A stretch of 44,061 bases of DNA from sequence record PP920550.1, one strand, 5' to 3'. Every line of letters starts with the position of its first letter. Position 1 is the stretch's first letter. Below are positions 3,512-36,466 of this stretch, one piece after another. The DNA comes from Escherichia phage Dru_SM5. The notes beneath the pieces are model-generated. The model ran no database searches and was not told the DNA's origin. It saw nothing but the letters and a program-made list of their open reading frames with translations. The translations under genes and the position numbers were made by a program.

Positions 3512-4598
3512 TCAATATTTGGCGGATCGCATGATTCGCCGTCACCTCTTCACCCAGCGCCTGAGCAATGACCAGGCGCGAAGGGTGCTGTCCATGTGGG
3601 AGAAGTTCCGGCCCACGTTACTGGGTAAGCTGACCGAGTTACTTGATGGTAAAAAAGCCATGAGCAACAAGGCGCTTACCACACTGTTGACGCAACTCGA
3701 CAAGACCGTTAAAACGGAACTGCGCACCGAGTTTAAGGCGCTGGCTGAAAACCTTCAGGAGTTCGCCGACACCGAGGCTGATTATCTAGCCGATACATTA
3801 ACGGCAGCGATCCAGCCTGCGGTCGCCGTACCGGCTGTTGAGGTTGTGAGCGTTGTAACCGGCGCGCAGATTGCAGCGACGGCAATGAAAAACCCGTTCC
3901 AGGGTAACACCATGATGCAGTGGCCTGACTCACTTTCCGAGTGGACCAGGACGCAGATCGGCAATCAGGTGCGCGCCGGATTCATCCAGGGCAAGCCAAC
4001 GATGGAAATTATCGCGGACGTGAGGCGCGCGCTTGGCGGTCGTAGTGCGCAGGCAATCTCAAGCGTTGTTAAGTCCGCGGTCAACCACTATGCGGCGACC
4101 GCCCGCGAATTAATGGTAAAAGCTAATGATGATATTCTCGAAGGTCGCCAATGGTTATCTACATTGGACACGCATACTTCTCCCATGTGCCAGCTACGCG
4201 ATCGCCTGTTTTATCCTGTTGACGTCACTCCCGACACCAAAGGAAAACGCGGCGGGAAAATGGTGGCTGGGTCACAATATGGCGCTGGTCCGGGCAAGTT
4301 GCATTATTGTTGCCGGTCGACGGAGACGTGGAAGGTTAAAGGCATGGAAGATTGGCCCAGTGGTAAGCGTCCGGCGCTGAAGGCTGACGCGGGCCGATTG
4401 CTGAGTGAGCAGGTGGACGCGCAGACTGATTTCTTCTCATGGGTGCAGCGCCAGCCGCGCCATATCCTGGAAGAATTATACGGAGTGCAACGCGCCGACC
4501 AGATTATGCGCGGCGTGAAAGTGCCGAAGATGTTTACCGATTCTGGCGAACTGATGACTATCGCACAGCTTAAAAACCGGGGGTTATGGCGTGATTAA
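3495..4598 (+). CDS. head morphogenesis / minor head protein (Mu F / SPP1 gp7-like)
   Basis: 367 aa ORF overlapping the portal 3' end by 17 nt. Conserved synteny position after portal. Function by position and size. Confidence 0.6.
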   Translation: MAKTINQYLADRMIRRHLFTQRLSNDQARRVLSMWEKFRPTLLGKLTELLDGKKAMSNKALTTLLTQLDKTVKTELRTEFKALAENLQEFADTEADYLADTLTAAIQPAVAVPAVEVVSVVTGAQIAATAMKNPFQGNTMMQWPDSLSEWTRTQIGNQVRAGFIQGKPTMEIIADVRRALGGRSAQAISSVVKSAVNHYAATARELMVKANDDILEGRQWLSTLDTHTSPMCQLRDRLFYPVDVTPDTKGKRGGKMVAGSQYGAGPGKLHYCCRSTETWKVKGMEDWPSGKRPALKADAGRLLSEQVDAQTDFFSWVQRQPRHILEELYGVQRADQIMRGVKVPKMFTDSGELMTIAQLKNRGLWRD

Positions 4599-4920
4599 AT
4601 ACGCAGCGATTGGGCTGGTTATCGGTCTGGCGGTAGGATTCTGGCTAGGTGACTCCTATCGCGCTGGCGTAGTGGCTGAGGCGGCGCAAGAAGCGCAAGC
4701 CAAAGCCCAACGGCAGCAAACTAAAGTTGTAGAGCGCTCCGTGCAGGCCGAACAAGCCCGCGACGTAGAATACCGGACTATCACGAAAGAGGTTGTTAAA
4801 TATGTTACGCGCACTAACCGCCCTGATTGTAGTTTTGATGCTGAGCGCGTGCGGATCAAGCAACGTGCAGTTGATGCCGCTAACGGAGTCGGCACTGCGA
4901 CCGCCGTGCAAGTTCGATAA
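4591..4920 (+). CDS. putative i-spanin (Rz-like)
   Basis: GTG start after RBS CCGGGGG. N-terminal transmembrane segment IKYAAIGLVIGLAVGFWLG followed by a charged Q/A/E/R-rich periplasmic-type region. Overlaps the lipoprotein ORF in another frame. Confidence 0.5.
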   Translation: MIKYAAIGLVIGLAVGFWLGDSYRAGVVAEAAQEAQAKAQRQQTKVVERSVQAEQARDVEYRTITKEVVKYVTRTNRPDCSFDAERVRIKQRAVDAANGVGTATAVQVR

Positions 4921-5032
4921 CCCGTCCGCAGACCCCGACGAGGATTTGATGATTGATGTGAAAAATATGGAATGCGGGGCGAAGCTGAGGGCGCAGGTCC
5001 TGGAGTTGCAGCAAATAATTAAGGGGCCGTAA
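4793..5032 (+). CDS. putative o-spanin lipoprotein (Rz1-like)
   Basis: RBS GAGG about 10 nt upstream of the ATG. Signal peptide MLNMLRALTALIVVLML with lipobox LSAC, then a short Pro-containing mature region. Starts inside the Rz-like ORF in the +1 frame and extends beyond it. Confidence 0.55.
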   Translation: MLNMLRALTALIVVLMLSACGSSNVQLMPLTESALRPPCKFDNPSADPDEDLMIDVKNMECGAKLRAQVLELQQIIKGP

Positions 5033-5045
5033 TGGCCCCTTTTTG
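5021..5045. terminator. intrinsic terminator hairpin between convergent genes
   Basis: GGGGCC-gtaat-GGCCCC stem-loop followed by TTTTTG. Sits between the + strand spanin genes and the - strand gene ending at 5046. Confidence 0.5.
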
Positions 5046-5810
5046 TTATCGCGGAATACCGCAAATCTCGTTGAGAGTTTTCACATCCAGCGCCACCGCC
5101 GTGGACTTCGGCTTATCCGGGTATGGAATAAACTGTTCAACTTCAGGCCACGCCTTGACCAGCTTCTTATCGGTATTGTGCATATCCAGCACGCCGGTAA
5201 CAGTTAGTTTGAACGCGTCATACTTAGCCCGCAACTCACGGCGGGCCTTGTCGTTACGGTCCAGGCGCTTGCAGAAATCATGGTCCGCAGGGTAGTCTAT
5301 ACGACCGCGTGGCTTATATATCGGCAGCGCTTTCCCTTCATCGTCAACTTCGCACACTGACGCTAACATAATTTCCTCATACCCAGGAACAATATCGCTA
5401 AGATCCGGTGCGAGCTTATTCATATATTTGTCTTCCCAGTATCCGCGGTGTTGGCGGAATCTTAGCCCGTCACCACTCAATGATAGGGTACGAACATTAC
5501 CGCCTGCGTTGATTTCGAAAGTGGCGTCGTAAACGCAGCCGATACCATACGGGCGATCGGAGTCGAAACGATACGTCGCTTTGTCGGTGTAAACGCTAAC
5601 GCCGTACATCTGCGACTGGTTGTCGCGGATTAACCGGATGTGCTCGAGTAGCTCGGCGAATGTGCGAATGCCTTCCGGCATACAGTCAAGCGTGATTGCG
5701 TACGCCAGATCGCGTGAGTCCACCATGATTTGTTTGGCTTCGGTTGCGATTTCGTGGTCGCGCAGGATGTTAGCCAGAATCTGATTTTTAATGTCTTTTG
5801 TCAGTCTCAT
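5046..5810 (-). CDS. hypothetical protein (reverse-strand insert in head module)
   Basis: Track ORF 5046..5897; internal ATG at 5810 chosen because it follows an AAGAGGA RBS (255 aa). No recognisable motif. Confidence 0.6.
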   Translation of the reverse strand: MRLTKDIKNQILANILRDHEIATEAKQIMVDSRDLAYAITLDCMPEGIRTFAELLEHIRLIRDNQSQMYGVSVYTDKATYRFDSDRPYGIGCVYDATFEINAGGNVRTLSLSGDGLRFRQHRGYWEDKYMNKLAPDLSDIVPGYEEIMLASVCEVDDEGKALPIYKPRGRIDYPADHDFCKRLDRNDKARRELRAKYDAFKLTVTGVLDMHNTDKKLVKAWPEVEQFIPYPDKPKSTAVALDVKTLNEICGIPR

Positions 5811-5824
5811 TTTTGTGTCCTCTT

Positions 5825-5986
5825 TTAGTGGTTGTATAATTCGCCGCGTGCGTCGGCATCTTCCATTTGGTGTAGTGCGTGTTTCTGGTCCTGGCAAGGA
5901 ATCCAGCGTTCCTCTAATTTATGCCAGAAGTAAAACACCCCGTTATCCAGCTTAATCTCGGCAATACCGTTATTGAAAGTTAGCAT
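5825..5986 (-). CDS. hypothetical small protein
   Basis: Track ORF 5825..6040; ATG at 5986 follows a GAGGG RBS (53 aa). First gene of the reverse-strand pair. Confidence 0.4.
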   Translation of the reverse strand: MLTFNNGIAEIKLDNGVFYFWHKLEERWIPCQDQKHALHQMEDADARGELYNH

Positions 5987-6052
5987 TTTGTTACCCTCAT
6001 TGGTTGGTATGCAACCAATATATTGCAACCAATCCACCAATGCAAGCGAATT

Positions 6053-6080
6053 TTGCGATTATTTTTATCGCTGATAATAT
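6053..6080 (+). promoter_or_regulatory. candidate sigma70-type promoter for scaffold/capsid operon
   Basis: TTGCGA, 16 nt spacer, TAATAT, about 55 nt upstream of the ATG at 6136. Preceded by a cluster of GCAACCAAT motifs (5998-6046). Confidence 0.35.
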
Positions 6081-6135
6081 TAGAGGCGTGAAGTCGAGCG
6101 GGTGGCCTGCTCTGCCACAATCCCAGGGGGATAGC

Positions 6136-6837
6136 ATGAAACTTACTAAAGCAGAATATGACGCGTTGCCAGAAGGCATGAAGGCCTTATTTGTTGCCGA
6201 TGGTGACGGGTATAAATCAACGTTCATGACCGCAGAAGAAGTACAGGCGGAAATCAAGGGTCTGAAAGACAACAACGCGAAGCTGGTGAGCGAGAAGAAA
6301 GCAGAAGCCGAACGCCGCGCCGAAGCTGAGCGACTTGCGAAAGAGAAAGAGGAAGCCGCCGCGCGCAAAAATGGCGACCTCGAAGCGATCGACAAGTCCT
6401 GGAAAGATAAGTTTGCGAAACACGAAGCAGACACATCGGGAAAAATCGAAGCCTACCGCAAGCAGATCCACGACCTAACCATCGGCAGCGCTGCCAAAGA
6501 CCTGGCATCGAAGCTGTTCGGTAAGAATGCGGGCATCATGCAACGCCACGTAATGGATCGCCTGACGCTGGAAGACGGCGAAGACGGCAGCTTGAAAGTG
6601 CGTGTCTTGCAGGATGGCAAACCGTCCGCGCTGACTATGGAAGAGCTTGAAAAAGAGTTCCGTAATAACGCCGATTTTGCATCCGTCCTGGCTGGCACGC
6701 CAGCCGGTGGCGCGCCTAGCAAACCGACGCAGGTTGTCGAAGATGTGAAGTCGAAAATCACTATGGGCCATAGCTTCGGTATCACTGACCTTACGAAACA
6801 GGCAGGTGAAATCATCGCGAAGATGGGCGACGAGTAA
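6136..6837 (+). CDS. putative head scaffolding protein
   Basis: Track ORF starts at 6004; ATG at 6136 follows an AGGGGGA RBS. Charged, A/E/K-rich coiled-coil-like composition. Sits immediately upstream of the major capsid gene. Confidence 0.55.
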   Translation: MKLTKAEYDALPEGMKALFVADGDGYKSTFMTAEEVQAEIKGLKDNNAKLVSEKKAEAERRAEAERLAKEKEEAAARKNGDLEAIDKSWKDKFAKHEADTSGKIEAYRKQIHDLTIGSAAKDLASKLFGKNAGIMQRHVMDRLTLEDGEDGSLKVRVLQDGKPSALTMEELEKEFRNNADFASVLAGTPAGGAPSKPTQVVEDVKSKITMGHSFGITDLTKQAGEIIAKMGDE

Positions 6838-6934
6838 GCAGATCGCCCGCGAAAGCGGGCGATTTTGCTAGCGCGGAAATCTAAGGTAACATTAACGTCA
6901 CTGGGCGAATGCTCACAACTCAAAGGATTTCGAT

Positions 6935-8035
6935 ATGTCTTTAACAGTGTTCCAGCGTAAACTCGTTACCGCGGTTACGCAAATGATCCCCGACAACCTG
7001 AACGTTTTCAACGCCGCCGCCAATGGCGCTGTTGTTCTCGGTACTGGTGAAGTGCTGAAGGACGTTATTGAGAAAATGTCCGTAGGCTTGATCGCCAACC
7101 TCGTTACCGACCGTAACGCCTACGCCCCTGTCGGCACTCCGGCAACCGCGAAAGTTCTGGCGCGTATGCTGACCAACTCGGTTAACCTTTCCGCAAAAGT
7201 GGGTCCGGTAGCAATCACTAAGGCTATGATGGCTAAGATCGAAACCAACGTTAACAGCGTTGCGGCTGAGATTGCGGCACAGGCTACTCAAGCGATTATG
7301 CTGCACTACCTGAAAGCTGGTATCGGCGCAAGTAAAGCGGCGATCGAAAGCAACGCAGCGGCAAAATACACCCAACCGGCGCGCGTTGACGGCGTTGGTG
7401 GTCGTACCTTCCCGACCCTGGCAGACTTCCCGCTGGCGGCTTCTAAGTTCGGCGATCAGGCGTCTTTGATTAAGTCCTGGTTTATGGACGGCGTTACCTG
7501 GGCAAACTTCATTGCGTACCAGGCACTCCCTTCCGCTGAACAGGTATTCGCAATTGGCGATCTACAGGTAATGGGTGATGGCCTGGGCCGACGATTCATT
7601 ATCTCCGATGCCGCTGCCGATGCTATGGGCGCTGGTAACATGCTGGGTCTGGTTCCTGGCGCGGTTGCAGTTACCACCAACGGCCTCGATATGCTGGCGC
7701 AGGAGAAAGGCGGTAACGAGAACATCGAACGCTGGTGGCAGGGCGAGTTCGACTTCAACGTGGCCGTTAAAGGCTACCGTCTGAAGGCGTCCGCTCGTAC
7801 CCCGATCGAAGGTGTGCGCTCGTTCAAACTGGACGATATTACCACTTCCGCTAACTGGGAACTGGACCAGGGCCAGGTAGACAACGCACCGGCAACCGTG
7901 CAGGACGTTGGCGCTGTGGGTGATGGCGATACTAAAGGTCGTCGTAAGACCCAGGCTGCACAGGCAGTGCCTACCCGTCACATCAAGGAAACCGCTGGCG
8001 TACTGGTTACGCTGACTGCGACTACCGCGTCTTAA
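6935..8035 (+). CDS. major capsid protein
   Basis: 366 aa ORF with RBS AAAGGA, followed by a strong terminator. Position after scaffold. Ala/Gly/Val-rich composition typical of capsid proteins. Confidence 0.7.
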   Translation: MSLTVFQRKLVTAVTQMIPDNLNVFNAAANGAVVLGTGEVLKDVIEKMSVGLIANLVTDRNAYAPVGTPATAKVLARMLTNSVNLSAKVGPVAITKAMMAKIETNVNSVAAEIAAQATQAIMLHYLKAGIGASKAAIESNAAAKYTQPARVDGVGGRTFPTLADFPLAASKFGDQASLIKSWFMDGVTWANFIAYQALPSAEQVFAIGDLQVMGDGLGRRFIISDAAADAMGAGNMLGLVPGAVAVTTNGLDMLAQEKGGNENIERWWQGEFDFNVAVKGYRLKASARTPIEGVRSFKLDDITTSANWELDQGQVDNAPATVQDVGAVGDGDTKGRRKTQAAQAVPTRHIKETAGVLVTLTATTAS

Positions 8036-9647: not shown

Positions 9648-10069
9648 TGAGCAATACTCTAATCCGCAAGGCGCTTAACCGCGTGGTAGAAGATTTATCG
9701 GTAAGCCTGAGCACCAGCCAGCGACCGATCCTTGTTAACTGGGAGAACGTGCAAGGGGACCACGCAAACGGCAGCGGTGTCTACCTGGAACCATATCTGC
9801 TTCCGGCCCCTACCCAGTTTGTGGGCTTCCAGCAGAAGGGCCGGATCTATGCAGGCGTGTATCAGATTGCCGTGGTATTTCCTGCTGGCACGGGCACACA
9901 GTATGCGAGCGAACTGGCGGACGCCATTGCGACGTCAGACAAGTGGCAGGCCGTAAGGCTTACCGGCGCTGCATTCCAGCTTCAGGACGCGCCATACACC
10001 AGTTCAGTTATTGAGGATGTTGACCGCGCCCGCATCGTGGTTACAGTGCCCTATTCCTGTTGTGCCTGA
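9647..10069 (+). CDS. putative tail terminator / tail component
   Basis: 140 aa; start overlaps the previous stop; RBS AAGGTGA. Immediately precedes the major tail gene. Confidence 0.45.
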   Translation: MSNTLIRKALNRVVEDLSVSLSTSQRPILVNWENVQGDHANGSGVYLEPYLLPAPTQFVGFQQKGRIYAGVYQIAVVFPAGTGTQYASELADAIATSDKWQAVRLTGAAFQLQDAPYTSSVIEDVDRARIVVTVPYSCCA

Positions 10070-10090
10070 TTTGGCGCAATTCTGCGCGTG
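10062..10090 (+). promoter_or_regulatory. candidate promoter upstream of major tail gene
   Basis: TTGGCG, 17 nt spacer, TATCAT. The spacer contains AATTCTGCGCG, an 11-mer that recurs at 39071-39081. Confidence 0.3.
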
Positions 10091-10129
10091 CTGTATCATT
10101 AAACCGTATATCTAAACAGGAGCTTTATT

Positions 10130-10855
10130 ATGGGTTATCAACTTCCCAACGGGTCCAGCGTCCAGATCGGGTCCGTATTAGGCAGCGGCATCGCGGTTAC
10201 GGCAGCTACCAACGCCGCCGCGTCGATCTCCGACCTTACGCAAGGTTGCGTAATTACCTGCGCGGCTTCGCATGGTCTGGTTGTTGGCGACGTTGTTATG
10301 TTCACTAAAACCCCGTGGGTCCGAGCGCTTAACCGCGCGTTCATCGTGGGTAAAGTGGGTACTAACGACGTGACGCTGGCGCGCTTCGATACTCAAGACG
10401 TCACAAAATACCCTACCGGCGCTTTCGGCGTAGGCACGCCGGGCGAAGTGGTGAAGGTGTCGAGCTTTATCGACTTCCCGTTTATCACTAACGTTGCCGT
10501 GTCGGGTGGCGACCAGCAGACCACCACCTTCCAGCCGTTGCAGGTGAATACCGCGATCAGTCTGAACACCACGAAAAACCCGTTGGTACAGACGTACACC
10601 TTCACCCACGACGAAGAAGACCCGATCCGCCCAATCCTGGAAGACCTGGACGACACACAGAAAACCACTGTGATTAAGTTCACTAACCCAGCGGCAGCAA
10701 GCGGCAAAGGTGAGATTCGTATTTACCCAGCTAAGGTATCTTTCCAGAAGATTCCGTCCGCTGAAGTAAACAACGTGGAAACGGTACAATCCACTCTGAC
10801 CATGCAGTCTGATATGGTTATCTACCGTAAGGATCTGGTCGAGGCATTGTCTTGA
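10130..10855 (+). CDS. major tail (tube) protein
   Basis: 241 aa ORF with RBS ACAGGAG, followed by a strong terminator. Located just upstream of the chaperone/tape-measure genes. Confidence 0.65.
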   Translation: MGYQLPNGSSVQIGSVLGSGIAVTAATNAAASISDLTQGCVITCAASHGLVVGDVVMFTKTPWVRALNRAFIVGKVGTNDVTLARFDTQDVTKYPTGAFGVGTPGEVVKVSSFIDFPFITNVAVSGGDQQTTTFQPLQVNTAISLNTTKNPLVQTYTFTHDEEDPIRPILEDLDDTQKTTVIKFTNPAAASGKGEIRIYPAKVSFQKIPSAEVNNVETVQSTLTMQSDMVIYRKDLVEALS

Positions 10856-21852: not shown

Positions 21853-22067
21853 TTGCAGGTTGTGCTTTTGAAGTGGTCGACCGACACATACTGGAAGTTG
21901 AATGGGTATCCCGCCCGTAACATTTTATGACCGCTAACGTCTGCAACCCCAAACACAGGGACGGAATACTCCACGCCACTATTCATGTATGTCGCGTCGC
22001 AGACTTTAGTCGGCATGTTGGCACAACCCGACAAAAGAACCCCACAAATCATAATTAAAGTTTTCAT
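21849..22067 (-). CDS. small lipoprotein, candidate Llp/Cor-like superinfection exclusion protein
   Basis: ATG at 22067 follows an AGGAGA RBS. Signal peptide MKTLIMICGVLL with lipobox LSGC; about 55 aa mature, Cys-containing. Reverse-oriented next to the tail fiber gene. Confidence 0.5.
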   Translation of the reverse strand: MKTLIMICGVLLSGCANMPTKVCDATYMNSGVEYSVPVFGVADVSGHKMLRAGYPFNFQYVSVDHFKSTTCK

Positions 22068-22147
22068 GGTATCATCTCCTATATTTGGTCGAGTTTTAGT
22101 ATCGCACCGCTCGACCAGGATTGCAACCAATTTATGAGGATTCAGCT

Positions 22148-23482
22148 ATGGCAGCGGGTACACTATCCGTAACGAACAATAGCAAGGCGGTAGTAGGGGT
22201 CGGCACAACGTTTACCGCGTTTAAAGCTGGCGACTTCTTAACGCTGGTGGTAGGACAAGTCCCATACACCGTGGCAATCGCGTCCGTTGAAAGCGCAACC
22301 GCGCTCACGCTGGTGTTGCCGTTCGACGGCCCAACGGCAACCGGCCTTGCGTGGGATGGTGTTAAGCGCGATACCATGTCACTGGCAACGATGGGCGTTA
22401 CCGTACAGGCTCAAAAAGCATTGCGCTTGATGATTGCAGATGAAAACAACTGGCGTGCAATCTTCGGCGACGCTGAAGAAATCACGGTCACGCTGCCGAA
22501 CGGGCAGGTGATGCAGGGTATGTCGTGGGGCTATCTGTCGCAGTTGATGAAACAGATCGACCCGTCTCAATACGCTAAGGTAAGTAACAACCTCACCGAC
22601 CTCACCGACAAAACCGCGGCACGGCAGACTCTCAACGCAATCGGCGTCGGGGATTATGGCATCGGAGGCGGCGCACCTGGCGGAAGTTGGGACACAGCAG
22701 ATGATAGCACCCTGATCGCTACAAACACAGGGTCCCCACTAGGTGACTTCTCCGTAGCGGGTGTGCATGTTAAGTTTGCGCAAAACTATGCTGTACAGTT
22801 CGCGGCGCGTAAAAGCCGATTTTTCTGGCGAACTAAAGAGAATGGGGCGCTACAGAATTGGTGCGAAGCGGTGAAGCCCGGCGACTACGGACTGGGTATT
22901 GAAAGATCAACCCCACCGCCGAATACGCAGGCTTGCTTTTTCTCGCAGGCGATCGGAGGTCCGACTTGGGCACCTGCAAACGGCGCAGGATTTCAATCTT
23001 CCTACCTCCCCACGCGTGTCGCGCAGGTTATGGTCGGGGTGGGGCCAGTGCTCTACTATCGTTTTAACACCTCCGGCGACGCGCAAGTCTCCTCCACAAC
23101 GCAACCATGGTCGCGGGTGCAAGATGCTGGTACGTCTGATGCCCGTGTGAAGGATATTAAGGGCAATTTAAATGTGGAAGCGGCGCTGGATAACATCAAC
23201 CGCCTTGAGTTTAAGTTGTTCCGGTACACGTTTGACGAACCGGAGCGATCTACGCGACGCGGAATCATTGCACAACAAGCGGCAACGGTTGACCGGGAAT
23301 ATGTGCACGACCACGAAGTGCCGGGGATGATGACGTTGGACTTAAACCCGCTTGTTGCGGATTGCCTGGCGGCTATTAAAGCGTTAAGAGCGCGTGACGA
23401 GGCGAACAAGGCCGAGATTGCAGAACTGAAAGCTGCCGTAGCGGAGTTGAAAGCCGCGGTCGCGGCACTGACTAAAGCATAA
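22148..23482 (+). CDS. tail fiber protein with C-terminal intramolecular chaperone (peptidase S74-like) domain
   Basis: ATG at 22148 follows a TGAGGA RBS. C-terminal roughly 120 aa (DARVKDIKGNLNVEAALD...coiled-coil AEIAELKAAVAELKAAVAAL) resemble auto-cleaving fiber chaperone domains. N-terminus shared with the 14665 ORF. Confidence 0.65.
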   Translation: MAAGTLSVTNNSKAVVGVGTTFTAFKAGDFLTLVVGQVPYTVAIASVESATALTLVLPFDGPTATGLAWDGVKRDTMSLATMGVTVQAQKALRLMIADENNWRAIFGDAEEITVTLPNGQVMQGMSWGYLSQLMKQIDPSQYAKVSNNLTDLTDKTAARQTLNAIGVGDYGIGGGAPGGSWDTADDSTLIATNTGSPLGDFSVAGVHVKFAQNYAVQFAARKSRFFWRTKENGALQNWCEAVKPGDYGLGIERSTPPPNTQACFFSQAIGGPTWAPANGAGFQSSYLPTRVAQVMVGVGPVLYYRFNTSGDAQVSSTTQPWSRVQDAGTSDARVKDIKGNLNVEAALDNINRLEFKLFRYTFDEPERSTRRGIIAQQAATVDREYVHDHEVPGMMTLDLNPLVADCLAAIKALRARDEANKAEIAELKAAVAELKAAVAALTKA

Positions 23483-23488
23483 CGAGAA

Positions 23489-23511
23489 GGGGCCACACGG
23501 CCCCTTTTTTT
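23489..23511. terminator. bidirectional terminator
   Basis: GGGGCC-acac-GGCCCC hairpin followed by TTTTTTT, between convergent genes. Confidence 0.55.
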
Positions 23512-24085
23512 AGTTTGAGTTTTCCCAGTCCATTTTGCGCCGCACCAGCGGGCTTTCGTAATATTCCTTGCCTTCCACTTCCACTAAGGGCCAATCATTA
23601 ACAATCACGTATGGCTCTGCGATATCTTCAATAACGCCGTGCGCGCTTTGTGGTCCCAACGACACGCCCACCAGGATAACACCGGCAACTCGACGGGTAA
23701 GATACTCGCGAGCGCAACGTGCCTCAACCAGTCCGCGACGGATGCCGCTGGTGGCTTTAACCTCGTAGGTCCAGACGGCATCGATCACATGCTCGCGGAA
23801 GTCGGGACCGGACTTAACCTTGCGCTTGCCGACCATGATAATATCGCCGCGGTCGATAGTGTTAGCGCTAAACAGGCCGGTACGCATTAGCAAACCTTGT
23901 GGAATACAGCTACGCCCGCCCGACTGCCCTTCGAGGTACATGCCTGCAAACATCTCGCCCAGCACACCGACAAGACGGCTTTGCTTGCACGCGTCAGACT
24001 TGTATCTCCACTGGTCAAACTCGATGCTTGCTATCATTGCCGCAAGGTGGAATTGTTTACCGGATATTTCATATTCGCCGTACAT
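23510..24085 (-). CDS. hypothetical protein, possible PD-(D/E)xK-type nuclease
   Basis: 191 aa with RBS GAGGACC. Contains GPDF...13 aa...EVK, fitting a PD-x(n)-ExK spacing. Assignment is motif-only and weak. Confidence 0.35.
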   Translation of the reverse strand: MYGEYEISGKQFHLAAMIASIEFDQWRYKSDACKQSRLVGVLGEMFAGMYLEGQSGGRSCIPQGLLMRTGLFSANTIDRGDIIMVGKRKVKSGPDFREHVIDAVWTYEVKATSGIRRGLVEARCAREYLTRRVAGVILVGVSLGPQSAHGVIEDIAEPYVIVNDWPLVEVEGKEYYESPLVRRKMDWENSN

Positions 24086-24127
24086 CGTGTGGTCCTCATT
24101 GATGCGGGCTTCGGCCCGCGATTAGAA

Positions 24128-24682
24128 TTATTTCAGTGCGCTACGTACCAGTGTTTTTTCCATGTTGCGGAAGTCTTCCGGCGTCATGAGGATTTTGGAC
24201 CCATCCTCTCCAGTGAGCACGACCATAGGCTGGACGTCCTGGGCCGCTACGCCGAAATTGGCGGCTTTGACAGTCTTCCCGAACGAGGCCACCACACCTT
24301 CGGAAACGCGCATTGCACTGTTATACGCATTAATCTCGCCATCTAGTCGTACGGACAGGTCTTTGAGGCTGTCGAATTGTGCTGCCGTTGTGTCGATCTG
24401 GATCTCGTCATGCACGGTCATGTACGACTCGCCCAGCAGGGCGGAATAGGCTACCAGGTCAACGATGTTATCGTCCTGGTGCTTACGGTGCTGGCGTACC
24501 AGCTTCAGGCAGACCAGGAAGGTCCAGGCTTCTTGCTCGGTCAGGTCGCGCCCGGTAAGCGCGTTAAACACGTCAGCGATTTGTTTAGCGCTGCGTTCTT
24601 CTTTCGCGTTGTCATAGCCGTTTTCTTTTCCGCGCTGTTCCATAGTGGTGGCGGCGTTTTTGCAGTATTCGTATGCTTTCAT
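24128..24682 (-). CDS. hypothetical protein
   Basis: 184 aa with RBS AAGGACC. No recognisable motif. Confidence 0.6.
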   Translation of the reverse strand: MKAYEYCKNAATTMEQRGKENGYDNAKEERSAKQIADVFNALTGRDLTEQEAWTFLVCLKLVRQHRKHQDDNIVDLVAYSALLGESYMTVHDEIQIDTTAAQFDSLKDLSVRLDGEINAYNSAMRVSEGVVASFGKTVKAANFGVAAQDVQPMVVLTGEDGSKILMTPEDFRNMEKTLVRSALK

Positions 24683-24727
24683 TATGTGGTCCTTATTAGC
24701 GCGGGGCCATATTGCCCCGACGCGTTA

Positions 24728-24757
24728 ACTATAGTGCAACCAACCTATTGGTTGCAA
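24728..24757 (-). promoter_or_regulatory. candidate promoter embedded in a 9-bp-arm inverted repeat
   Basis: On the minus strand: TTGCAA, 18 nt spacer, TATAGT. Spacer overlaps the inverted repeat TGCAACCAA-ccta-TTGGTTGCA (24735-24756). About 45 nt upstream of the 24682 start. Confidence 0.35.
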
Positions 24758-25215
24758 GTAAATTTTGCAACGTTTATTGCGTAAATTTTCGGGACTAAAT
24801 CGCCGCACGCCCGACGAATGGCCGCGATGTTCTTCGGACCGTCTTCAATGATGACCAGTTCCGATACGTCCGCATAGCAGACCATTTTGAATACAGCGCA
24901 CGCCTTAAACTCTGGCGGCGGGGTGTCGTCCAGCATGTGGCGCATAAACAACCGGCCGTTCGGGAATACTTTCAGTTGCTCGGCGGTGGTGTCCCAGCAT
25001 TCTCGCTGCCGGTTTGTCAGATACGCGATCTCGAAGCCTTGCTCTTTATACATGCGCAGTAGCGGCAGCATATCCATGTTCAGGTCTTCGCGAACGTGCG
25101 CTTTGTGCCACTTCGCCCAAAAGGTGGATTTCGTTTTTATGCCGGGCACCAGGTCAGCACGCGCATCGCTTGATCCATTAATAACGCCATCCAAATCGCA
25201 AATCAGTAGTTTCAT
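24745..25215 (-). CDS. HAD-superfamily phosphatase-like protein
   Basis: N-terminal MKLLICDLDGV (HAD motif I DxDG), a downstream Thr/Ser motif, and EDGP near the C-terminus. 156 aa. Confidence 0.55.
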   Translation of the reverse strand: MKLLICDLDGVINGSSDARADLVPGIKTKSTFWAKWHKAHVREDLNMDMLPLLRMYKEQGFEIAYLTNRQRECWDTTAEQLKVFPNGRLFMRHMLDDTPPPEFKACAVFKMVCYADVSELVIIEDGPKNIAAIRRACGDLVPKIYAINVAKFTCNQ

Positions 25216-25445
25216 TTTAAGCTCTCAATAAGTGTCTGTCGGGCGCTTCGCGCAGTAAAGGAGTTGCATACGAAATGGCAACGCCGAGTTATGACAAGCC
25301 AACCGGTGAGGTCAAGGCCCATGATGCGTCCGGGATGGGACGCGCGCACCACATGATTGCGGCGTGGGTCGATGCAGAAGTCTTTTTGCATTTGGTCTAC
25401 TACCGCGGGGTCGCGGTCAACGATTAAGATATTCATGTAGCTCAC
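25212..25445 (-). CDS. hypothetical protein
   Basis: 77 aa ORF, overlaps neighbours by a few nt on both sides. Confidence 0.4.
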   Translation of the reverse strand: MSYMNILIVDRDPAVVDQMQKDFCIDPRRNHVVRASHPGRIMGLDLTGWLVITRRCHFVCNSFTARSARQTLIESLK

Positions 25446-25902
25446 TCTCGCTCATTATTTCAATTTGTGCGCTGCCGCATGGCGGCGCTTCGTCAAATAT
25501 TATCAATTGCTGGCACTTGTTATTGCTCGGCCCGACTTCACCGGTTACAGCATGTATGAATCGGATCCGCCAGTCCAGAAGAATTATCAGGTTTGCAGTC
25601 TTCCTGGCCAGCTTCGCCCACTTCGTCGACGTGTCCTGATTCAGCAGCATGACAGTCCGTCGACCGTGCGCTGCGCATTCCACCCACGGCAGCGGATCGG
25701 AATACGGCGGATTGCACCACTTCCACCCTTTCAACTCTGACCAGTCCACATCAAGCGCGCTGTGCTCTGCCGTGAAGTAACGCGGTAGCAGATGGTTGGC
25801 GTCGCTTGCCGCCATATCGTAACGGAATCGGAACTTACGGCGCAGCGGTTTAAATAAAGCTGGCGGCGTGCGCCAGCTATCTTTCTGCTCACTCTTCTGC
25901 AT
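25417..25902 (-). CDS. DNA N6-adenine methyltransferase (phage Dam-like)
   Basis: Catalytic NPPY motif (WKWCNPPYSD). Size about 160 aa, typical of phage orphan N6-adenine methyltransferases. Confidence 0.75.
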   Translation of the reverse strand: MQKSEQKDSWRTPPALFKPLRRKFRFRYDMAASDANHLLPRYFTAEHSALDVDWSELKGWKWCNPPYSDPLPWVECAAHGRRTVMLLNQDTSTKWAKLARKTANLIILLDWRIRFIHAVTGEVGPSNNKCQQLIIFDEAPPCGSAQIEIMSESELHEYLNR

Positions 25903-26347
25903 AGTCTGGATCTATCGCATACAGGGCGGTTTTCTTTCCGCCGGATAGCACGCGTTGGACTCTGGACATCTCCTCCTTACTGAGCGGTCGGCTATCGGAA
26001 TAGTAGCTGCCGTTTGCACGCCACGCTATATGCACCAGTCCTTTCCACGGGATCGAAGACTGGCGACCTTTGGGGCGCACGTACGCCTCGGCCCGTTTGC
26101 AATGCTCGCGCAAACCTTCGGCTGTGAGTCGATTTAGTGCGACGGTGGTTGTGTATCCGGTGCGCTGCATAATACACATCAACTCATACAGCAGATCGAA
26201 GCGCTCCTCTAATTCCTTTCGCGCCTTCTCCTCGCCTTCATAGCTCGCCAGATAGGTGTCTGCCAGCGCGCTAACACGTTTGACCTGTTCGCGGGCTTCG
26301 AGGCATTGCGCGGCCCAGTAATTTTTCTCTTCTTGTAAAATCTTCAT
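25889..26347 (-). CDS. hypothetical protein
   Basis: 152 aa ORF overlapping the Dam start by 14 nt. Confidence 0.5.
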   Translation of the reverse strand: MKILQEEKNYWAAQCLEAREQVKRVSALADTYLASYEGEEKARKELEERFDLLYELMCIMQRTGYTTTVALNRLTAEGLREHCKRAEAYVRPKGRQSSIPWKGLVHIAWRANGSYYSDSRPLSKEEMSRVQRVLSGGKKTALYAIDPDYAEE

Positions 26348-26590
26348 TTATTTAATCTCCGTAGTGCGGATTTCCTTGCGCGGAATAAATTTGCCGTCTT
26401 TCTCGACCCAGCAAGTTCCGAAACGCCATTGGGTATTACGGCCTGTTTGCTCGGCATATACGGTCTTGCATTCGTAGCGTTCCGTATAGTAAGTAGCCGC
26501 GGTAGGTACGAAAATACAAACGGCAAACATGAGGGTGAGTATCACCCAAAATCGAAGGTCGCCGTCGTAGTCGAAAAATAATGATCTCAT
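26348..26590 (-). CDS. small membrane protein
   Basis: 80 aa with one predicted TM helix (FWVILTLMFAVCIFVP). RBS GGAGA. Preceded on the minus strand by a terminator hairpin. Confidence 0.5.
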   Translation of the reverse strand: MRSLFFDYDGDLRFWVILTLMFAVCIFVPTAATYYTERYECKTVYAEQTGRNTQWRFGTCWVEKDGKFIPRKEIRTTEIK

Positions 26591-26608
26591 CGTGTTGTCT
26601 CCAGGTAT

Positions 26609-26636
26609 TAAAAAGGGCGTCCAAACCGGACACCCT
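26609..26636 (-). terminator. minus-strand intrinsic terminator / attenuator
   Basis: Minus strand: GGGTGTCC-ggtttg-GACGCCC followed by TTTTT, immediately upstream of the RBS of the 26590 gene. Confidence 0.45.
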
Positions 26637-26671
26637 TAATGTAATGCAACCAATCTAATTATGCAACCAAT

Positions 26672-26989
26672 TTACGCATAAAAGTTTGGGTCGCGTGCAA
26701 CGTCTACCAGGTAAAGGTTGCTTATGCGGTTGCCGTAGTGCCCTGGAGTGCGCTGGCGGCACACAACGGCGAAGCCTGGGGGGATTGTATTGCCCGTCTC
26801 AATAATCCACGCCACGCGTGCACCAGACAGCGTCTTGCCGTTGCATTCGATACGTGTTCCGCCGTCGGCAGTATTGATGTTGCCGATCTTGCAGCCGGTG
26901 GACTTCAGACGGATGACTCCGGTTTTGCTGTCGTAGGTGAATAGCTGGTTAGTCATTGCAACCGAAAAGTCGATGGCTTCGAATGTCAT
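26672..26989 (-). CDS. hypothetical protein (possibly degenerate HNH/NUMOD-like)
   Basis: 105 aa. The G-x-x-IECNGK...ARVAWIIETG pattern loosely recalls phage HNH_3-type proteins but lacks the catalytic His. Function uncertain. Confidence 0.4.
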   Translation of the reverse strand: MTFEAIDFSVAMTNQLFTYDSKTGVIRLKSTGCKIGNINTADGGTRIECNGKTLSGARVAWIIETGNTIPPGFAVVCRQRTPGHYGNRISNLYLVDVARDPNFYA

Positions 26990-26990
26990 T

Positions 26991-28619
26991 TTAAATTTTC
27001 CTCGTTTTCTTAGCTTTCATGTATTCCATCAAGTCGTCCTGAATATCTCGCTTACTGTCTCGACGCTCGGCGACCAGTTCGTCCAGTGTACCGCGCGCCT
27101 GGATAATGTAGACGAATACCGGACGGGGGTGTCCTGCTTGCATCTGGCGAACCGGCCCGATACGTTCAACGATCTGCGAAAAGTGCTCAAAGTTCCAGGT
27201 ATCGGAGAAGATTGCCAGGTGGTGACCGCCGTCCTGCAAGTTAAGGCCGTGGCCGGCCGATGCCGGGTGTGCAAACATGATGGGTATCTCGCCCCTGTTC
27301 CACGCTTCCATATCCTTATTCCCCTGCTTACCTTTGCCCAACGCAACGCCGTGCGGAAATTTCTTCTTGAGACGCGCCAGGTCATGCTTGTACTGGTACG
27401 CAACGAGCAACGGGGCGCCGTTCAACTCCTCTACGATACTTTCCAGCGCGTCCAGCTTGGCGTCGTGGATCTTCACCCACTCGTCGGTCCGTTCGCCGTC
27501 TTCGTCGACTTTATACACGGCCCCGGAAGCAAGCTGAAGGCACTTAATAGTCTTCGAAGCAGCGTTCGCCGCCTCCACAGTTCCGCTTTCCAGTTCGGCA
27601 AATAGCTCCGCTTCGAACTGGTCATAAATCTTGCGGGCTTTCTTCGGCAGGTCCACAACAACAGGCGTATAGATTGGCTTGTCGCATCCGAAGTATTCAG
27701 CCGCGTCAACGGTGAGGGATACATCAGACAGGCGTTGTTGTATTTCTTTCTCGGAGTTCTTTAGCGGAGCGTGCTGCATCGTGAAGCTGCCGGGGTTAAC
27801 CGGCTTGCTAATGAACCAGCGATCGGTGAATGCCTTATAGCTACTGCCGAGACGCTCGCCACCGTCGACAAACCACGTCTGACCCCATAAGTCTTTTAAG
27901 CCATTAGGCGCGGGTGTGCCGGTCAGGTTAATCCAGCGCTTGACGTGCTTATGTGCAACCGCTGCCAGTGCGCGGGCGCGCTTACTCCCCTGCTTACTTC
28001 GATAGCCTTTCAGCTTAGGCGCGGGTGTGCCGGTCAGGTTAATCCAGCGCTTGACGTGCTTATGTGCAACCGCTGCCAGTGCGCGGGCGCGCTTACTCCC
28101 CTGCTTACTTCGATAGCCTTTCAGCTTAGTGGATTCATCGGCAACAACGACCGTAAAGGGCCACGCATCGCCGTAATAGTCAACCAGCCACTCAACCACA
28201 TCATAGTTAACACAAACCACGTTAGCGTCGCTCTCCAACGCGGCTATGCGGTCTTTCTCCGGCCCAGTGCCGTCTACGACCAGGAGGGATGAGAACCGCC
28301 ATTTCTCCTGCTCCGGGGGCCATGTACCTGACGCAACACGCAGCGGGGCCAGCACCAGTACGCGGTCGTCATGATGGGATAGGACGCCAGTCTGGAACAT
28401 TTTATTCAGCGCCCACATTGTCGCGCCGGTTTTACCGGATCCCATTGTCGCCCAGATATTACATCGCTTATGCTTGAGGATGAACGCGGTTATCAACTTC
28501 TGATATTCGCGGCGTCGGAATCGTGCCATATCTTTATTCCGCCTTTTTCCAGACTTCGGTTTCACTGTTCCAGTTCCTTTTTGTGGCGTCGTAGTTGGTG
28601 GCGTGTCCGATGTGGACAC
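26991..28619 (-). CDS. SNF2/DEAD-like superfamily 2 helicase
   Basis: Motif I WATMGSGKT, motif II VADEST, motif III LTGTPAP (duplicated by a 111 bp tandem repeat), plus C-terminal helicase motifs. Alternative start at 28529. Confidence 0.75.
   Translation of the reverse strand: MSTSDTPPTTTPQKGTGTVKPKSGKRRNKDMARFRRREYQKLITAFILKHKRCNIWATMGSGKTGATMWALNKMFQTGVLSHHDDRVLVLAPLRVASGTWPPEQEKWRFSSLLVVDGTGPEKDRIAALESDANVVCVNYDVVEWLVDYYGDAWPFTVVVADESTKLKGYRSKQGSKRARALAAVAHKHVKRWINLTGTPAPKLKGYRSKQGSKRARALAAVAHKHVKRWINLTGTPAPNGLKDLWGQTWFVDGGERLGSSYKAFTDRWFISKPVNPGSFTMQHAPLKNSEKEIQQRLSDVSLTVDAAEYFGCDKPIYTPVVVDLPKKARKIYDQFEAELFAELESGTVEAANAASKTIKCLQLASGAVYKVDEDGERTDEWVKIHDAKLDALESIVEELNGAPLLVAYQYKHDLARLKKKFPHGVALGKGKQGNKDMEAWNRGEIPIMFAHPASAGHGLNLQDGGHHLAIFSDTWNFEHFSQIVERIGPVRQMQAGHPRPVFVYIIQARGTLDELVAERRDSKRDIQDDLMEYMKAKKTRKI
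27904..28129. repeat. perfect 111-bp tandem duplication inside helicase gene
   Basis: Two identical 111 bp units (period verified 27904 to 28015). Encodes KLKGYRSKQGSKRARALAAVAHKHVKRWINLTGTPAP twice, in frame. Confidence 0.85.
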
Positions 28620-28634
28620 CAGTAGCCGTATTAA

Positions 28635-28820
28635 TTATTTTTGTTCCGCACGGTAGCGGCGCTGCCGTTCTCGTTCTGCCTTGTTACGGCACGACTTACA
28701 CTGCGCGCGATACCCGTCCGGGCTACGTGCTGTTTTGCCAGTGTACTTATGAAATTGCGATAGCGGTTTAACACAGCCGCATTGGCTGCAACGTTTTTCT
28801 TCAATCATTTTAACCCTCAT
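28635..28820 (-). CDS. small zinc-ribbon protein
   Basis: 61 aa with CSQCGC...CKSCRNK (two CxxC pairs) and a basic C-terminus. Confidence 0.45.
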   Translation of the reverse strand: MRVKMIEEKRCSQCGCVKPLSQFHKYTGKTARSPDGYRAQCKSCRNKAERERQRRYRAEQK

Positions 28821-29748
28821 TAATAAATGCTTTTATAAATTCAGCCGCTACTTGTGGAACGATGGCATTGCCGTAACCGCGCAGTCGTCCCACTCTGGCG
28901 GGTATCCCATTAGCCAGCGGGAATGTGCCGGATTCAACTGGCCTGAACTTCCCATCGCGGCATCCAAGCCAGTCAGCATCTGACCAGAAGCCGTTATGCG
29001 GATCGGATGTGCTATCCTCAGACCTTGCTCCGTCGAATAATCCAGGCGGTCGAATGTTCTGTCTTTCCCGTCTTTCCTTATCACTGTCCCCCCGCTTCCC
29101 TTGAAATCGTTCGCCGTCGGTGCGGCCCAGCTTGTCAGCACCGCGACGTCCTGCAAATTTTGCTGCCGTCCTGCTTCCTTGCGTTTTATTACTTTCTCCC
29201 AATCCGTGTAACCGTTCACCGTCCCGTTTTGCGCGCAAGGACTCGGCCAGGTTGTAAGCCCCGAAGAAAAGTCTGTCCCGTTTGTGCGGTGCGCCGACGC
29301 TACAAGCTGGGAGTACGGCAAACCCGACGGCGTAGTCTTCTCTTTCCAGGTGAGCTTGTAAATCACACATCCACGATTTTGCAATTGCTGGCGCAACCTG
29401 CTCCCCAAAGATGATTGTAGGGCGGCACTCGCTGACGAGGCGGAGGAACGTCGGCGCAAGGTGTCTTGGGTCGAACTGTCCAAGCTGACGTCCTGCCGTG
29501 CTAAACGGCTGGCACGGCGGGCTTCCCGTCCAGAGGCGCGTGCTTTCCGAAACGCCCGCAAGTCGGAGCGCGAGAGGCCAGCCGCCAATACCAGCGAAAA
29601 AATGACACTGCGTGAATCCGTCGAGGTCTTCGGGTTGCACATCCTCAATACTCCTTTCATCTACTATGCCATACGGGATATGGCCTTGTTTTATTAGCTC
29701 ACGCAGCCATGCTGCCGCGTGTTTGTCCCATTCGTTGTAATAGTTCAT
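28810..29748 (-). CDS. DNA cytosine-5 methyltransferase
   Basis: Motif I FAGIGG, motif IV GSPPCQPFS (catalytic PC), an ENV-like FGEQV, and motif X GYGNAIVP. Holds a charged low-complexity insert (K/R/G/D-rich) in the variable region. Confidence 0.75.
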   Translation of the reverse strand: MNYYNEWDKHAAAWLRELIKQGHIPYGIVDERSIEDVQPEDLDGFTQCHFFAGIGGWPLALRLAGVSESTRLWTGSPPCQPFSTAGRQLGQFDPRHLAPTFLRLVSECRPTIIFGEQVAPAIAKSWMCDLQAHLEREDYAVGFAVLPACSVGAPHKRDRLFFGAYNLAESLRAKRDGERLHGLGESNKTQGSRTAAKFAGRRGADKLGRTDGERFQGKRGDSDKERRERQNIRPPGLFDGARSEDSTSDPHNGFWSDADWLGCRDGKFRPVESGTFPLANGIPARVGRLRGYGNAIVPQVAAEFIKAFINEG

Positions 29749-29785
29749 AGTTTGCCTCTTTTGTGGCTACCGGCACACTATACCG

Positions 29786-30064
29786 CTATGCGACCAATTC
29801 AGCAACCAATAAATCGCAGTCGGCTATGTTGTCAATAACGCGAACGTCAGCACCGCGGCGGACCATTCGATCGTGTTCTCGTACCTGGTGCGGCTTCGGT
29901 TTTCCACCGGGGCGCTTCACTTCGACGAATACAACTCTGCCGTTTATGATAATAATCAGGTCGGGCGCACCTGAGCGCCCCTCCCATGCCAGTTTTCGGC
30001 AGAATCCACCAACCTCTTTCACCCGTTTCATCAGGTGATTCTGCACCTTGCCTTCGGGAGTCAT
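29786..30064 (-). CDS. VRR-NUC domain nuclease
   Basis: 92 aa with PDLIIIINGRVVFVEVKRPGGKPKPHQ, a PD-(D/E)xK core typical of VRR-NUC. Confidence 0.65.
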   Translation of the reverse strand: MTPEGKVQNHLMKRVKEVGGFCRKLAWEGRSGAPDLIIIINGRVVFVEVKRPGGKPKPHQVREHDRMVRRGADVRVIDNIADCDLLVAELVA

Positions 30065-30068
30065 AATC

Positions 30069-32360: not shown

Positions 32361-32527
32361 TGCTTTATCCTCACTACGGCGTCAGCGCTGCCGATCATGG
32401 AGAAGATGCCGTCGGACAGGGCGATCTCTTCTCCATTGTTGCGAATCTCGGCAACTGTGAAATACTCGCCCAGCAATTTGGACCATACCTGCATTCCGAC
32501 TTTTACTTCGCTGGCTTTAATACGCAT
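32357..32527 (-). CDS. small hypothetical ORF translationally coupled to DNA polymerase
   Basis: 55 aa ORF (MRIKASEVKVGMQVWSKLLGEYF...) whose TGA stop overlaps the polymerase ATG (ATGA). Below the track size cut-off; weak RBS. Confidence 0.3.
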   Translation of the reverse strand: MRIKASEVKVGMQVWSKLLGEYFTVAEIRNNGEEIALSDGIFSMIGSADAVVRIKQ

Positions 32528-32541
32528 TTTTCATTGTCCTA

Positions 32542-32567
32542 TTAAAAAGCCCGCATTAAGCGGGCTT
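32542..32567 (-). terminator. minus-strand intrinsic terminator
   Basis: Minus strand: AGCCCGC-ttaat-GCGGGCT followed by TTTTT, after the SSB-like gene. Confidence 0.5.
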
Positions 32568-32585
32568 GAATAGTGGGCTTTGCCC

Positions 32586-33308: not shown

Positions 33309-33405
33309 TTTCCAATTCCTCATTTTCACATGTATCGGGGTTATTGGAAGCCACCCCGTTCGGCTTGGTTGCTAATTTACTTGGTTGCGCCTAAGCGGTC
33401 AAGCT

Positions 33406-35502: not shown

Positions 35503-35513
35503 TGTCTCGTCCT

Positions 35514-35543
35514 CTAAAAAGAGGCCCGCAGATTAGCGGGCCG
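35514..35543 (-). terminator. minus-strand intrinsic terminator / attenuator
   Basis: Minus strand: GGCCCGC-taatct-GCGGGCC followed by a T-run, then directly the RBS of the 35502 gene. Confidence 0.5.
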
Positions 35544-35550
35544 GAATACA

Positions 35551-36435: not shown

Positions 36436-36466
36436 CGTTGGTCATCAACCAACAGGAGACTGAATT

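Follow-up and report, generated by a model that had tools for sequence, protein, structure and literature searches.

The nmad5 operon of a Dhillonvirus coliphage and its variable leader slot

Here we describe a pair of reverse-strand genes in Escherichia phage Dru_SM5 (sequence record PP920550.1). The stretch of DNA that we analysed, called the window below, has a length of 44,061 nucleotides (nt), and the pair consists of two open reading frames (ORFs) at positions 5046-5810 and 5825-5986, enclosed by genes for head morphogenesis, the spanins and the head scaffold. A previous reading of this DNA, made without any database search (hereafter the sequence-only reading), had regarded the pair as an autonomous antisense unit of a kind expected for accessory cargo (defence, anti-defence or host-modifying genes). 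We found that the window is a Dhillonvirus phage and that the pair is the nmad5 operon of Escherichia coli Dhillonvirus phages. The locus has already been described in the literature (PMC11846954); what we add is a leader cassette slot, an operator regulon that nmad5 appears to share, the lack of an enzyme-like fold, a contrast in evolutionary rate between nmad5 and its neighbours, and a correction of the residue numbering.

Results

The reverse-strand pair is an nmad5 operon

The 2.4 kb that surround the pair match 158 phage records at approximately 92-94% nt identity. With few exceptions, these records come from Escherichia phages that belong to the genus Dhillonvirus (HK578-like siphophages). 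EK99P-1 is one of the closest, and it is collinear with the window along the entire genome. Both ORFs are present as the sequence-only reading had given them. The length of 53 amino acids (aa) assigned to the smaller product is correct, while the larger product has 254 aa and not 255, the stop codon having been counted.

The 254-aa protein is matched end to end by Pfam PF18757 (E = 4.7e-56, 190.5 bits at a gathering cut-off of 27), with residues 1-253 covering profile positions 1-206 of 206, and it also matches PHROG 1965. The name of PF18757 in Pfam is "Nucleotide modification associated domain 5", hence Nmad5. The ATG of the gene lies at 5810, and the encoded protein opens with the family-wide N-terminus MRLTKDIK. 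The earlier statement that neither protein shows a recognisable motif is therefore wrong for the 254-aa protein, but it stands for the 53-aa protein, for which we obtained no match in Pfam, PHROGs, PADLOC or NCBIfam.

The features of the locus are the following.

5046-5810, minus strand: nmad5, 254 aa, Pfam PF18757 (Nmad5), by profile match
5818-5823, minus strand: Shine-Dalgarno sequence AGAGGA of nmad5; relatives keep GAGGAC
5825-5986, minus strand: 53-aa acidic orphan ORF in the variable leader slot, by ORF call
5994-5998, minus strand: Shine-Dalgarno sequence GAGGG of the 53-aa ORF
5999-6007, minus strand: degenerate inverted motif copy (CCAACCAAT) with one mismatch, absent from the seven other aligned relatives
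6011-6019: operator-like motif copy 1 (GCAACCAAT on the plus strand), overlapping the 3' end of the candidate nmad5 -10 hexamer and the start-site region
6017-6022, minus strand: candidate nmad5 -10 hexamer TATATT, from the alignment of relatives
6025-6033: operator-like motif copy 2 (GCAACCAAT), inside the 17-nt spacer of the candidate nmad5 promoter
6040-6045, minus strand: candidate nmad5 -35 hexamer TTGCAT, 17 nt from the -10; TTGCAA in five of seven aligned relatives
5021-5041, both strands: shared bidirectional intrinsic-terminator hairpin, by folding energy, ending the terminase-to-spanin (plus) and nmad5 (minus) transcripts
6053-6080, plus strand: candidate scaffold-capsid promoter, TTGCGA, 16-nt spacer and TGaTAATAT (extended -10), conserved in relatives
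6136-6837, plus strand: head scaffolding gene (PHROG 206, E = 5.7e-51), the first gene of the divergent late unit
4591-4920, plus strand: Rz, a context gene of the convergent unit (PHROGs 2536 and 5672 for the Rz/Rz1 pair)
4793-5032, plus strand: embedded Rz1 lipoprotein gene with the lipobox LSAC, at the end of the convergent unit

Taken together, nmad5 forms an autonomous minus-strand transcription unit that is composed of a candidate sigma-70-type promoter, a leader, nmad5 itself and the shared hairpin as terminator. Late units of the plus strand flank it on both sides: it converges with the terminase-to-spanin operon, and the scaffold-capsid operon diverges from it. The autonomy proposed before is confirmed. 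PHROG matches also bear out the flanking genes: on the plus strand, head morphogenesis (PHROG 241) and the Rz/Rz1 spanin pair lie upstream, and the scaffold gene lies downstream.

A bidirectional terminator had been proposed as well, and a stable hairpin is indeed found at 5021-5041 on both strands. For the plus strand its folding energy is -17.1 kcal/mol and for the minus strand -15.9 kcal/mol, with z-scores of -4.0 and -3.8, respectively. A strong U-tract (UUUUUGUUAU) follows it in the plus-strand direction and a weak one (AAUUAUUUG) in the minus-strand direction. In the records of HK578 and PTXU06 the depositors annotated terminators at the matching spot. The other border of the unit, a conserved control region, is present in 157 records. 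On the nmad5 strand, all aligned relatives share TTGCAT or TTGCAA, a 17-nt spacer and TATATT. The proposed promoters rest on conservation across relatives, and they are below the threshold of the promoter scan tool in the window. The motif-rich divergent control region of the sequence-only reading is likewise real, as it holds GCAACCAAT twice in exact form, at a distance of 14 nt, and once inverted with a single mismatch. Motif copy 1 is kept in all relatives that we inspected. Given the candidate promoter at 6053-6080, it is plausible that the motif copies sit roughly 55-75 bp upstream of the scaffold-capsid start. A scan of 4500-6900 with Rfam returned nothing above threshold.

As a side observation, the Rz/Rz1 genes (4591-5032) end the terminase-portal-morphogenesis unit and are approximately 36 kb away from the holin and endolysin genes as these are annotated in relatives (at about 41.4-42.4 kb), which means that the lysis cassette is split.

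Nmad5 has no detectable enzyme fold

All signatures of PF18757 are present in the window protein, that is, the N-terminal MRLT, the central GG, NTxxKLxxxWPE and the C-terminal LNxxCGxP. In an alignment of 41 diverse members of the family, G104, L217, W221, L246, N247 and G251 are invariant, and R2, L3, T4, T213, P222, C250 and P253 are nearly so. The same alignment contains no invariant set of Asp, Glu, His or Cys residues, no acid/base set and no nucleotide-binding motif.

A structure model was calculated with AlphaFold from the 41 sequences and is confident (predicted local distance difference test, pLDDT, 85.1; predicted template modelling score, pTM, 0.78). It comprises three N-terminal helices, a beta subdomain (residues ~79-129), a long helix (178-209), short helices (214-227) that carry NTxxK216LxxxWPE, a low-confidence linker and a final helix (243-250) with LNxxCGxP. 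Comparison of the model with solved folds gave no match, and a search of a viral structure library returned only other Nmad5-type proteins and unnamed phage proteins. A profile search of the sequences in the Protein Data Bank (PDB) yielded nothing significant. A borderline profile match to a transposase (PDB 8iaz, E = 0.006) disappeared with a better profile, and we consider it spurious. Furthermore, none of the fold and homology searches (Pfam, PHROGs, structure) found a virion or assembly protein resembling Nmad5. We conclude that Nmad5 has no detectable enzyme fold.

An exhaustive search for the family collected only 101 clusters at 50% identity, mostly of proteins of 170-230 aa. Its name derives from a neighbourhood of nucleotide or DNA modification genes. 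We did not find such a neighbourhood in the window, where nmad5 is flanked by the spanin and scaffold genes and the nearest genes annotated as methyltransferases in relatives are approximately 20 kb away. Since the neighbourhood is a contextual feature and not a sequence criterion, membership in PF18757 stands.

A conserved position and a fast-evolving gene

Next, we asked whether nmad5 is a variable insert, as an accessory cargo gene might be. By translated search, 149 records have Nmad5 at 60% identity or more. A coverage of at least 80% of the protein is reached by 146 records, one of which is a distant Stutzerimonas phage. At exactly this position, the gene is found in about 145-149 of the 157 Dhillonvirus records. 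In a distant relative, the metagenomic genome IMGVR_UViG_3300045988_050407 (L035), the identities are 69% for the portal, 63% for the scaffold, 84% for the capsid and 36% for Nmad5, and the gene order (portal, head morphogenesis, Rz/Rz1, reverse-strand nmad5, scaffold, capsid) is unchanged, so the position of nmad5 is ancestral. L035 (3530-5070) also has about 470 nt with an ORF upstream of nmad5, and a 100-aa ORF overlaps the nmad5 stop codon downstream; additional genes seem to be tolerated at either side of the locus.

While the position is conserved, the sequence is less so. In an LM40P1-like genome Nmad5 is 64% identical and its neighbours are 76-91% identical. Among eight genomes, the synonymous divergence (dS) is 0.42 for nmad5 compared to 0.14 for the adjacent scaffold gene. 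By these comparisons, nmad5 is the gene that evolves fastest in its block, at 3-4 times the rate of its neighbours. In the same eight genomes, the ratio of nonsynonymous to synonymous rates (omega) is 0.11, that is, nmad5 is under purifying selection and hence a working gene. The constraint is uneven: codons 45-100 are hypervariable (omega 0.26), and the C-terminal third has an omega of 0.04. Comparison with EK99P-1 reveals a sharp mosaic boundary, with 86.1% identity in nmad5, 100% in the small ORF and 97.3% in the control region and scaffold gene.

The gene can also be lost. The type phage HK578 (NC_019724.1, 4900-5640) has no nmad5, and a 140-aa slot gene stands alone between the terminator and the control region; JL1 has only a 74-aa N-terminal remnant of Nmad5. 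Both phages are natural knock-outs that can be used in phenotype comparison. Together with the viability of an engineered deletion (see below), they show that nmad5 is dispensable.

Small genes are exchanged in the leader

We aligned the segments from the scaffold ATG to the nmad5 ATG. The conserved control region gives way to a slot that separates the operator from the ribosome-binding site of nmad5 and has at least four states. The slot is empty in SM_S22, Pride and LM40P1. A 53-aa ORF occupies it in three records (the window, EK99P-1 and P-GXEC-L2P5), a 104/109-aa ORF (PHROG 24635) in about 61 Dhillonvirus records, and a 135-aa ORF in seven Escherichia records. The leader of nmad5 is thus a cassette slot in which unrelated small genes are exchanged, and it is the truly variable part of the locus. 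The idea of a variable insert, if applied to nmad5, is not supported by the comparison of gene order; if applied to the small ORF, it is correct, as presence, absence and replacement occur at a fixed junction.

The 104- and 135-aa cassettes have their own ribosome-binding site and a trailing GGGGCGAAAGCCCC hairpin. The 53-aa ORF has neither its own promoter nor its own terminator; it is placed downstream of the nmad5 promoter and upstream of the ribosome-binding site of nmad5, and no terminator follows it. Its predicted product has an isoelectric point of 5.3. All 162 of its 162 nt are identical to EK99P-1 gp08.

The slot resembles known moron or accessory cassette slots in that unrelated small ORFs are swapped at one precise junction among near-identical genomes, and in that homologues of the slot cassettes occur in unrelated phages of Serratia, Erwinia, Pantoea and Salmonella. 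On the other hand, the cassettes have no promoter of their own but ride in the nmad5 leader and are co-transcribed with nmad5. We considered the 135-aa slot protein as a dedicated partner of Nmad5 and rejected this idea: its Serratia and Erwinia homologues are found at unrelated accessory positions with no Nmad5 among the annotated neighbours, so they are independent passengers.

Note that the record of P-GXEC-L2P5 (PQ843332.1) has 88.6 kb, about twice the size of a Dhillonvirus genome, and that three places in it match a query of 325 bp (window 5811-6135). Perhaps several sequences were concatenated or mixed in this assembly.

A recurrent motif overlaps the candidate promoter

The motif GCAACCAAT is not confined to the nmad5 control region. 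The window contains 15 exact copies, compared to approximately 0.3 expected. The motif positions are 6011, 6025, 22123, 24736/24747, 26646/26663, 29790/29802, 33364/33380 and 36270, and further 39083/39137/39172, 39454/39544/39575, 40130 and 42637/42660; the copies are often paired, 11-17 nt apart. In EK99P-1 the positions are conserved, and 12 of 14 copies are intergenic, where intergenic DNA makes up 7.8% of the genome. Three sigma-70-like promoter sites contain the motif in their spacers (36292-36263, with TTGACA-18-TATCAT; 33402-33374; 24757-24728). The first of these is the strongest motif-bearing promoter-like site in a scan of 22000-41900, and it lies in the replication-gene half of the genome. 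We think that GCAACCAAT is probably the operator of a phage regulator. Because it overlays the nmad5 promoter as well as promoter spacers in the replication half, nmad5 would belong to an operator-controlled, presumably early regulon.

A candidate for the regulator is encoded next to the strongest of these sites. The gene at 36467-36796 (plus strand; PHROG 9366) adjoins 36292-36263 and specifies a 109-aa protein in which only a helix-turn-helix (HTH) was found (matches to HTH_23 and sigma-70 region 4). In relatives it is annotated as a "transposase"; from its domain content and position, it is more likely to be a regulator that binds GCAACCAAT.

A dense repeat region, 39061-39600, directly follows the helicase-primase gene. 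It includes three copies of a unit of about 22-32 nt containing GCAACCAAT (39061-39190), four repeats of the AAGCGGGACA type (39225-39278) and more motif copies (39454-39583). Its repeat structure is reminiscent of the iterons at a replication origin, or else of a regulatory hub.

Residue K216 and escape from Tmn

The locus has been studied genetically in the Dhillonvirus phages SM_A8 (CDS7) and SM_S22 (CDS6) by Yamashita et al. (Commun Biol 2025, 8:290; PMC11846954). Mutants that escape the defence system Tmn carried K216E in SM_A8 and a change numbered K296E in SM_S22; reversion of K216E brought back the sensitivity to Tmn, and engineered K216E led to escape (PMC11846954). Deletion of nmad5 gave a viable phage that was still restricted by Tmn, and cloning of nmad5 failed, apparently through toxicity (PMC11846954). 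The authors labelled Nmad5 a "DNA or nucleotide-modifying enzyme" (PMC11846954).

The window phage shares with SM_A8 and SM_S22 the locus, the 254-aa length, K216, the terminator and the divergent control region. K216 falls within the signature NTxxKLxxxWPE, and the 254-aa frame of the window is the published one. The protein of SM_S22 is 88.6% identical to that of the window. On the other hand, the window allele is distinct, as no deposited phage exceeds about 90% identity to it and a single metagenomic cluster reaches 97%, and the leader slot holds a 53-aa ORF in the window and a 104-aa ORF in SM_A8 but is empty in SM_S22.

In SM_S22 (PP627283.1, 5005-6009), CDS6 is an over-extended call of 334 aa that overlaps the scaffold coding sequence (also over-extended). 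Because the homology to Nmad5 begins at the same ATG as in other phages, both the "K296" numbering and the claim of a "truncated N-terminus" are an annotation artefact; the true protein has 254 aa, and the residue is K216 as in SM_A8. An anti-Tmn gene has been published under the name "ORF35", and we looked for it in SM_S22. There, CDS0035 bears the annotation of a DNA ligase, as does a gene at a similar place in EK99P-1, so that the published number does not correspond cleanly to the record.

Since a charge reversal in the best-conserved motif of the surface allows escape whereas deletion of the gene does not, the genetics call for a gain-of-function or dominant-negative explanation. The mutant K216E protein would either newly block Tmn or trap the real trigger.

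Family members in other genomes

The lambdoid members of the family (HK542 gp33, HK244 gene 01, PhiR12_2) are full-length (E ~ 1e-71) and, like the window gene, non-structural and in an accessory position. In HK542 and PhiR12_2, the gene is the first after N in the pL operon, ahead of cIII, Erf/Bet and Abc2. They differ in their length of 207 aa, in belonging to temperate phages and in lying within the pL operon. Expression from pL of lambdoid phages depends on antitermination by N and not on a dedicated operator-bearing promoter. In metagenomic siphophages of 40-49 kb, the Nmad5 gene is the second of an operon that also encodes an exonuclease, a single-stranded DNA-binding protein (SSB) and DNA polymerase A, and in Vibrio phage Athena1 it precedes the replication initiator gene. 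What the neighbourhoods of Nmad5 genes have in common is a place in the part of the genome devoted to regulation, recombination and replication, and not base modification.

Members from the Yuavirus phages M6 and SN1 belong to the same family (E = 2.2e-33 for the M6 protein) and show the same N- and C-terminal signatures. However, with 186 aa they are shorter, most of the expanded middle subdomain being absent, and their genes are found in a cluster for hypermodification derived from 5-hydroxymethyl-dU, whereas the window gene has no modification genes nearby.

Translated matches to the C-terminal region of Nmad5 were also seen in 59 records of Stx-converting (Stx1a/Stx2a) phages, for example in LC616041.1 at 9875-10174. 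The ten of these records that were listed carry no annotated feature at that place.

Discussion

We propose that Nmad5 is an early, operator-controlled and dispensable protein, non-enzymatic and directed at the host or at its defences, an interpretation as a whole to which we give somewhat less than an even chance. Most likely, the RNA polymerase of the host would switch nmad5 on early, and a DNA-binding protein of the phage would later turn it off; the HTH protein of 36467-36796 is the candidate for this regulator. Nmad5 would be a binding protein in three parts, namely a conserved helical core, a fast-evolving beta subdomain (residues ~45-170) and a conserved C-terminal peptide (LNxxCGxP). 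It may act as a host-takeover or counter-defence factor on a host component where the DNA metabolism of the phage meets the immunity of the host. The surface around K216 would be the functional interface, and charge reversal there would alter what Tmn sees or is blocked by.

Several observations weigh against this proposal. In the Yuavirus phages M6 and SN1, the Nmad5 gene lies inside a thymidine-hypermodification cluster. PADLOC models of defence proteins match neither of the two window proteins, and NCBIfam does not match the 254-aa protein. The promoter scan tool reported no sigma-70 site in 4400-7000. The orientation of GCAACCAAT differs among promoters, and copies also occur where no promoter is evident (22123, 39083-39180), so that it is at most a putative repressor operator. 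Early expression is deduced from the sequence, and our literature search found no Dhillonvirus transcriptome. Finally, the deletion mutant behaves like the wild type on Tmn (PMC11846954) and is not reported to be sensitised.

Alternatively, Nmad5 could be an accessory of the replication or recombination machinery of the phage itself, for example an adaptor that recruits or protects the replisome, with no direct host or defence target. We regard this as unlikely, though not as far-fetched. The gene recurs at or near the head of operons with exonuclease, SSB, DNA polymerase A, Erf/Bet or replication protein O, and the conserved C-terminal peptide that follows the low-confidence linker resembles the docking tails of replication proteins. 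However, Nmad5 is found with unrelated replication systems (lambda O/P-type, T7-like polymerase A, Yuavirus), which speaks against a common phage partner; moreover, it is dispensable, has been lost naturally and evolves much faster than its neighbours, and its apparent toxicity to uninfected E. coli points to a host target (PMC11846954).

A more specific possibility, which we find a little more doubtful, is that the locus is a counter-defence island. Nmad5 would then be a non-enzymatic inhibitor or decoy with a new fold, whose hypervariable beta subdomain tracks host immune proteins (KAP/Tmn-type NTPases) while the K216 surface and the C-terminal peptide engage a conserved host factor; the leader ORFs, including the 53-aa one, would be anti-defence proteins co-expressed from the early operator-controlled promoter.

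Slightly less probable again is a part for Nmad5 in the modification of DNA or nucleotides, as an accessory that is either non-catalytic or catalytic in a novel way; Tmn would then sense the modification state. For example, Nmad5 could target or regulate the two DNA methyltransferases of the phage, or it could make an unrecognised base modification. This corresponds to the family name, to the place of the gene in the thymidine-hypermodification cluster of Yuavirus M6 and SN1 and to the reading of Yamashita et al. (PMC11846954), and two DNA methyltransferases are indeed annotated in the replication-gene region of relatives. On the other hand, there is no enzyme fold and there are no conserved catalytic residues, and the 5-NedU pathway of M6 has been rebuilt in vitro from gp51-gp54 without Nmad5 (PMC8989533). 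Full-length members occur in lambdoid phages, in Athena1 and in the 40-49 kb metagenomic phages with no modification genes nearby, just as in the window the spanin and scaffold genes flank nmad5 and the annotated methyltransferases are some 20 kb off. In addition, Dhillonvirus phages are comparatively sensitive to restriction-modification systems (PMC8594841), and deletion of nmad5 leaves the sensitivity to Tmn unchanged (PMC11846954).

Potentially, Nmad5 could also be a passive trigger that is sensed by Tmn, with K216E simply removing the recognition. Independent escape mutants of two phages at the same residue, and the return of sensitivity upon reversion, would fit (PMC11846954). We nevertheless consider it improbable, as deletion of nmad5 does not give escape (PMC11846954), so that Nmad5 is not the sole trigger of Tmn, and the mutation behaves as a gain-of-function or dominant allele. 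Lastly, a role of the 254-aa protein in head assembly or structure, which its genus-wide place between the head-morphogenesis and scaffold genes might suggest and which would have contradicted the sequence-only reading, is effectively refuted by the opposite strand with a candidate promoter and a terminator of its own, by homologues in regulatory, recombination and replication regions and not in structural modules, by the viable deletion (PMC11846954), by the absence of the gene from HK578 and by the lack of structural matches to virion proteins; the position is conserved, and nothing suggests a structural role.

As for accessory, defence-linked cargo, this view holds insofar as nmad5 is dispensable and genetically tied to Tmn. 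It does not hold as far as nmad5 was thought to be a variable insert; it is the leader slot that varies.

Nmad5 is a widespread family found only in phages, namely in coliphages, Stx-converting prophages and phages of Pseudomonas, Vibrio and Bordetella. Its name implies an enzymatic role, and nothing in this analysis supports such a role. With no known fold or catalytic signature, the fastest evolution in its block and a probably early operator control, the focus shifts from modification chemistry to binding partners and defence panels. Dhillonvirus is a genus used in phage-therapy engineering, and a single residue of Nmad5 decides whether Tmn blocks infection. The leader slot is a natural and tolerated site for the insertion of payloads into therapeutic Dhillonvirus phages.

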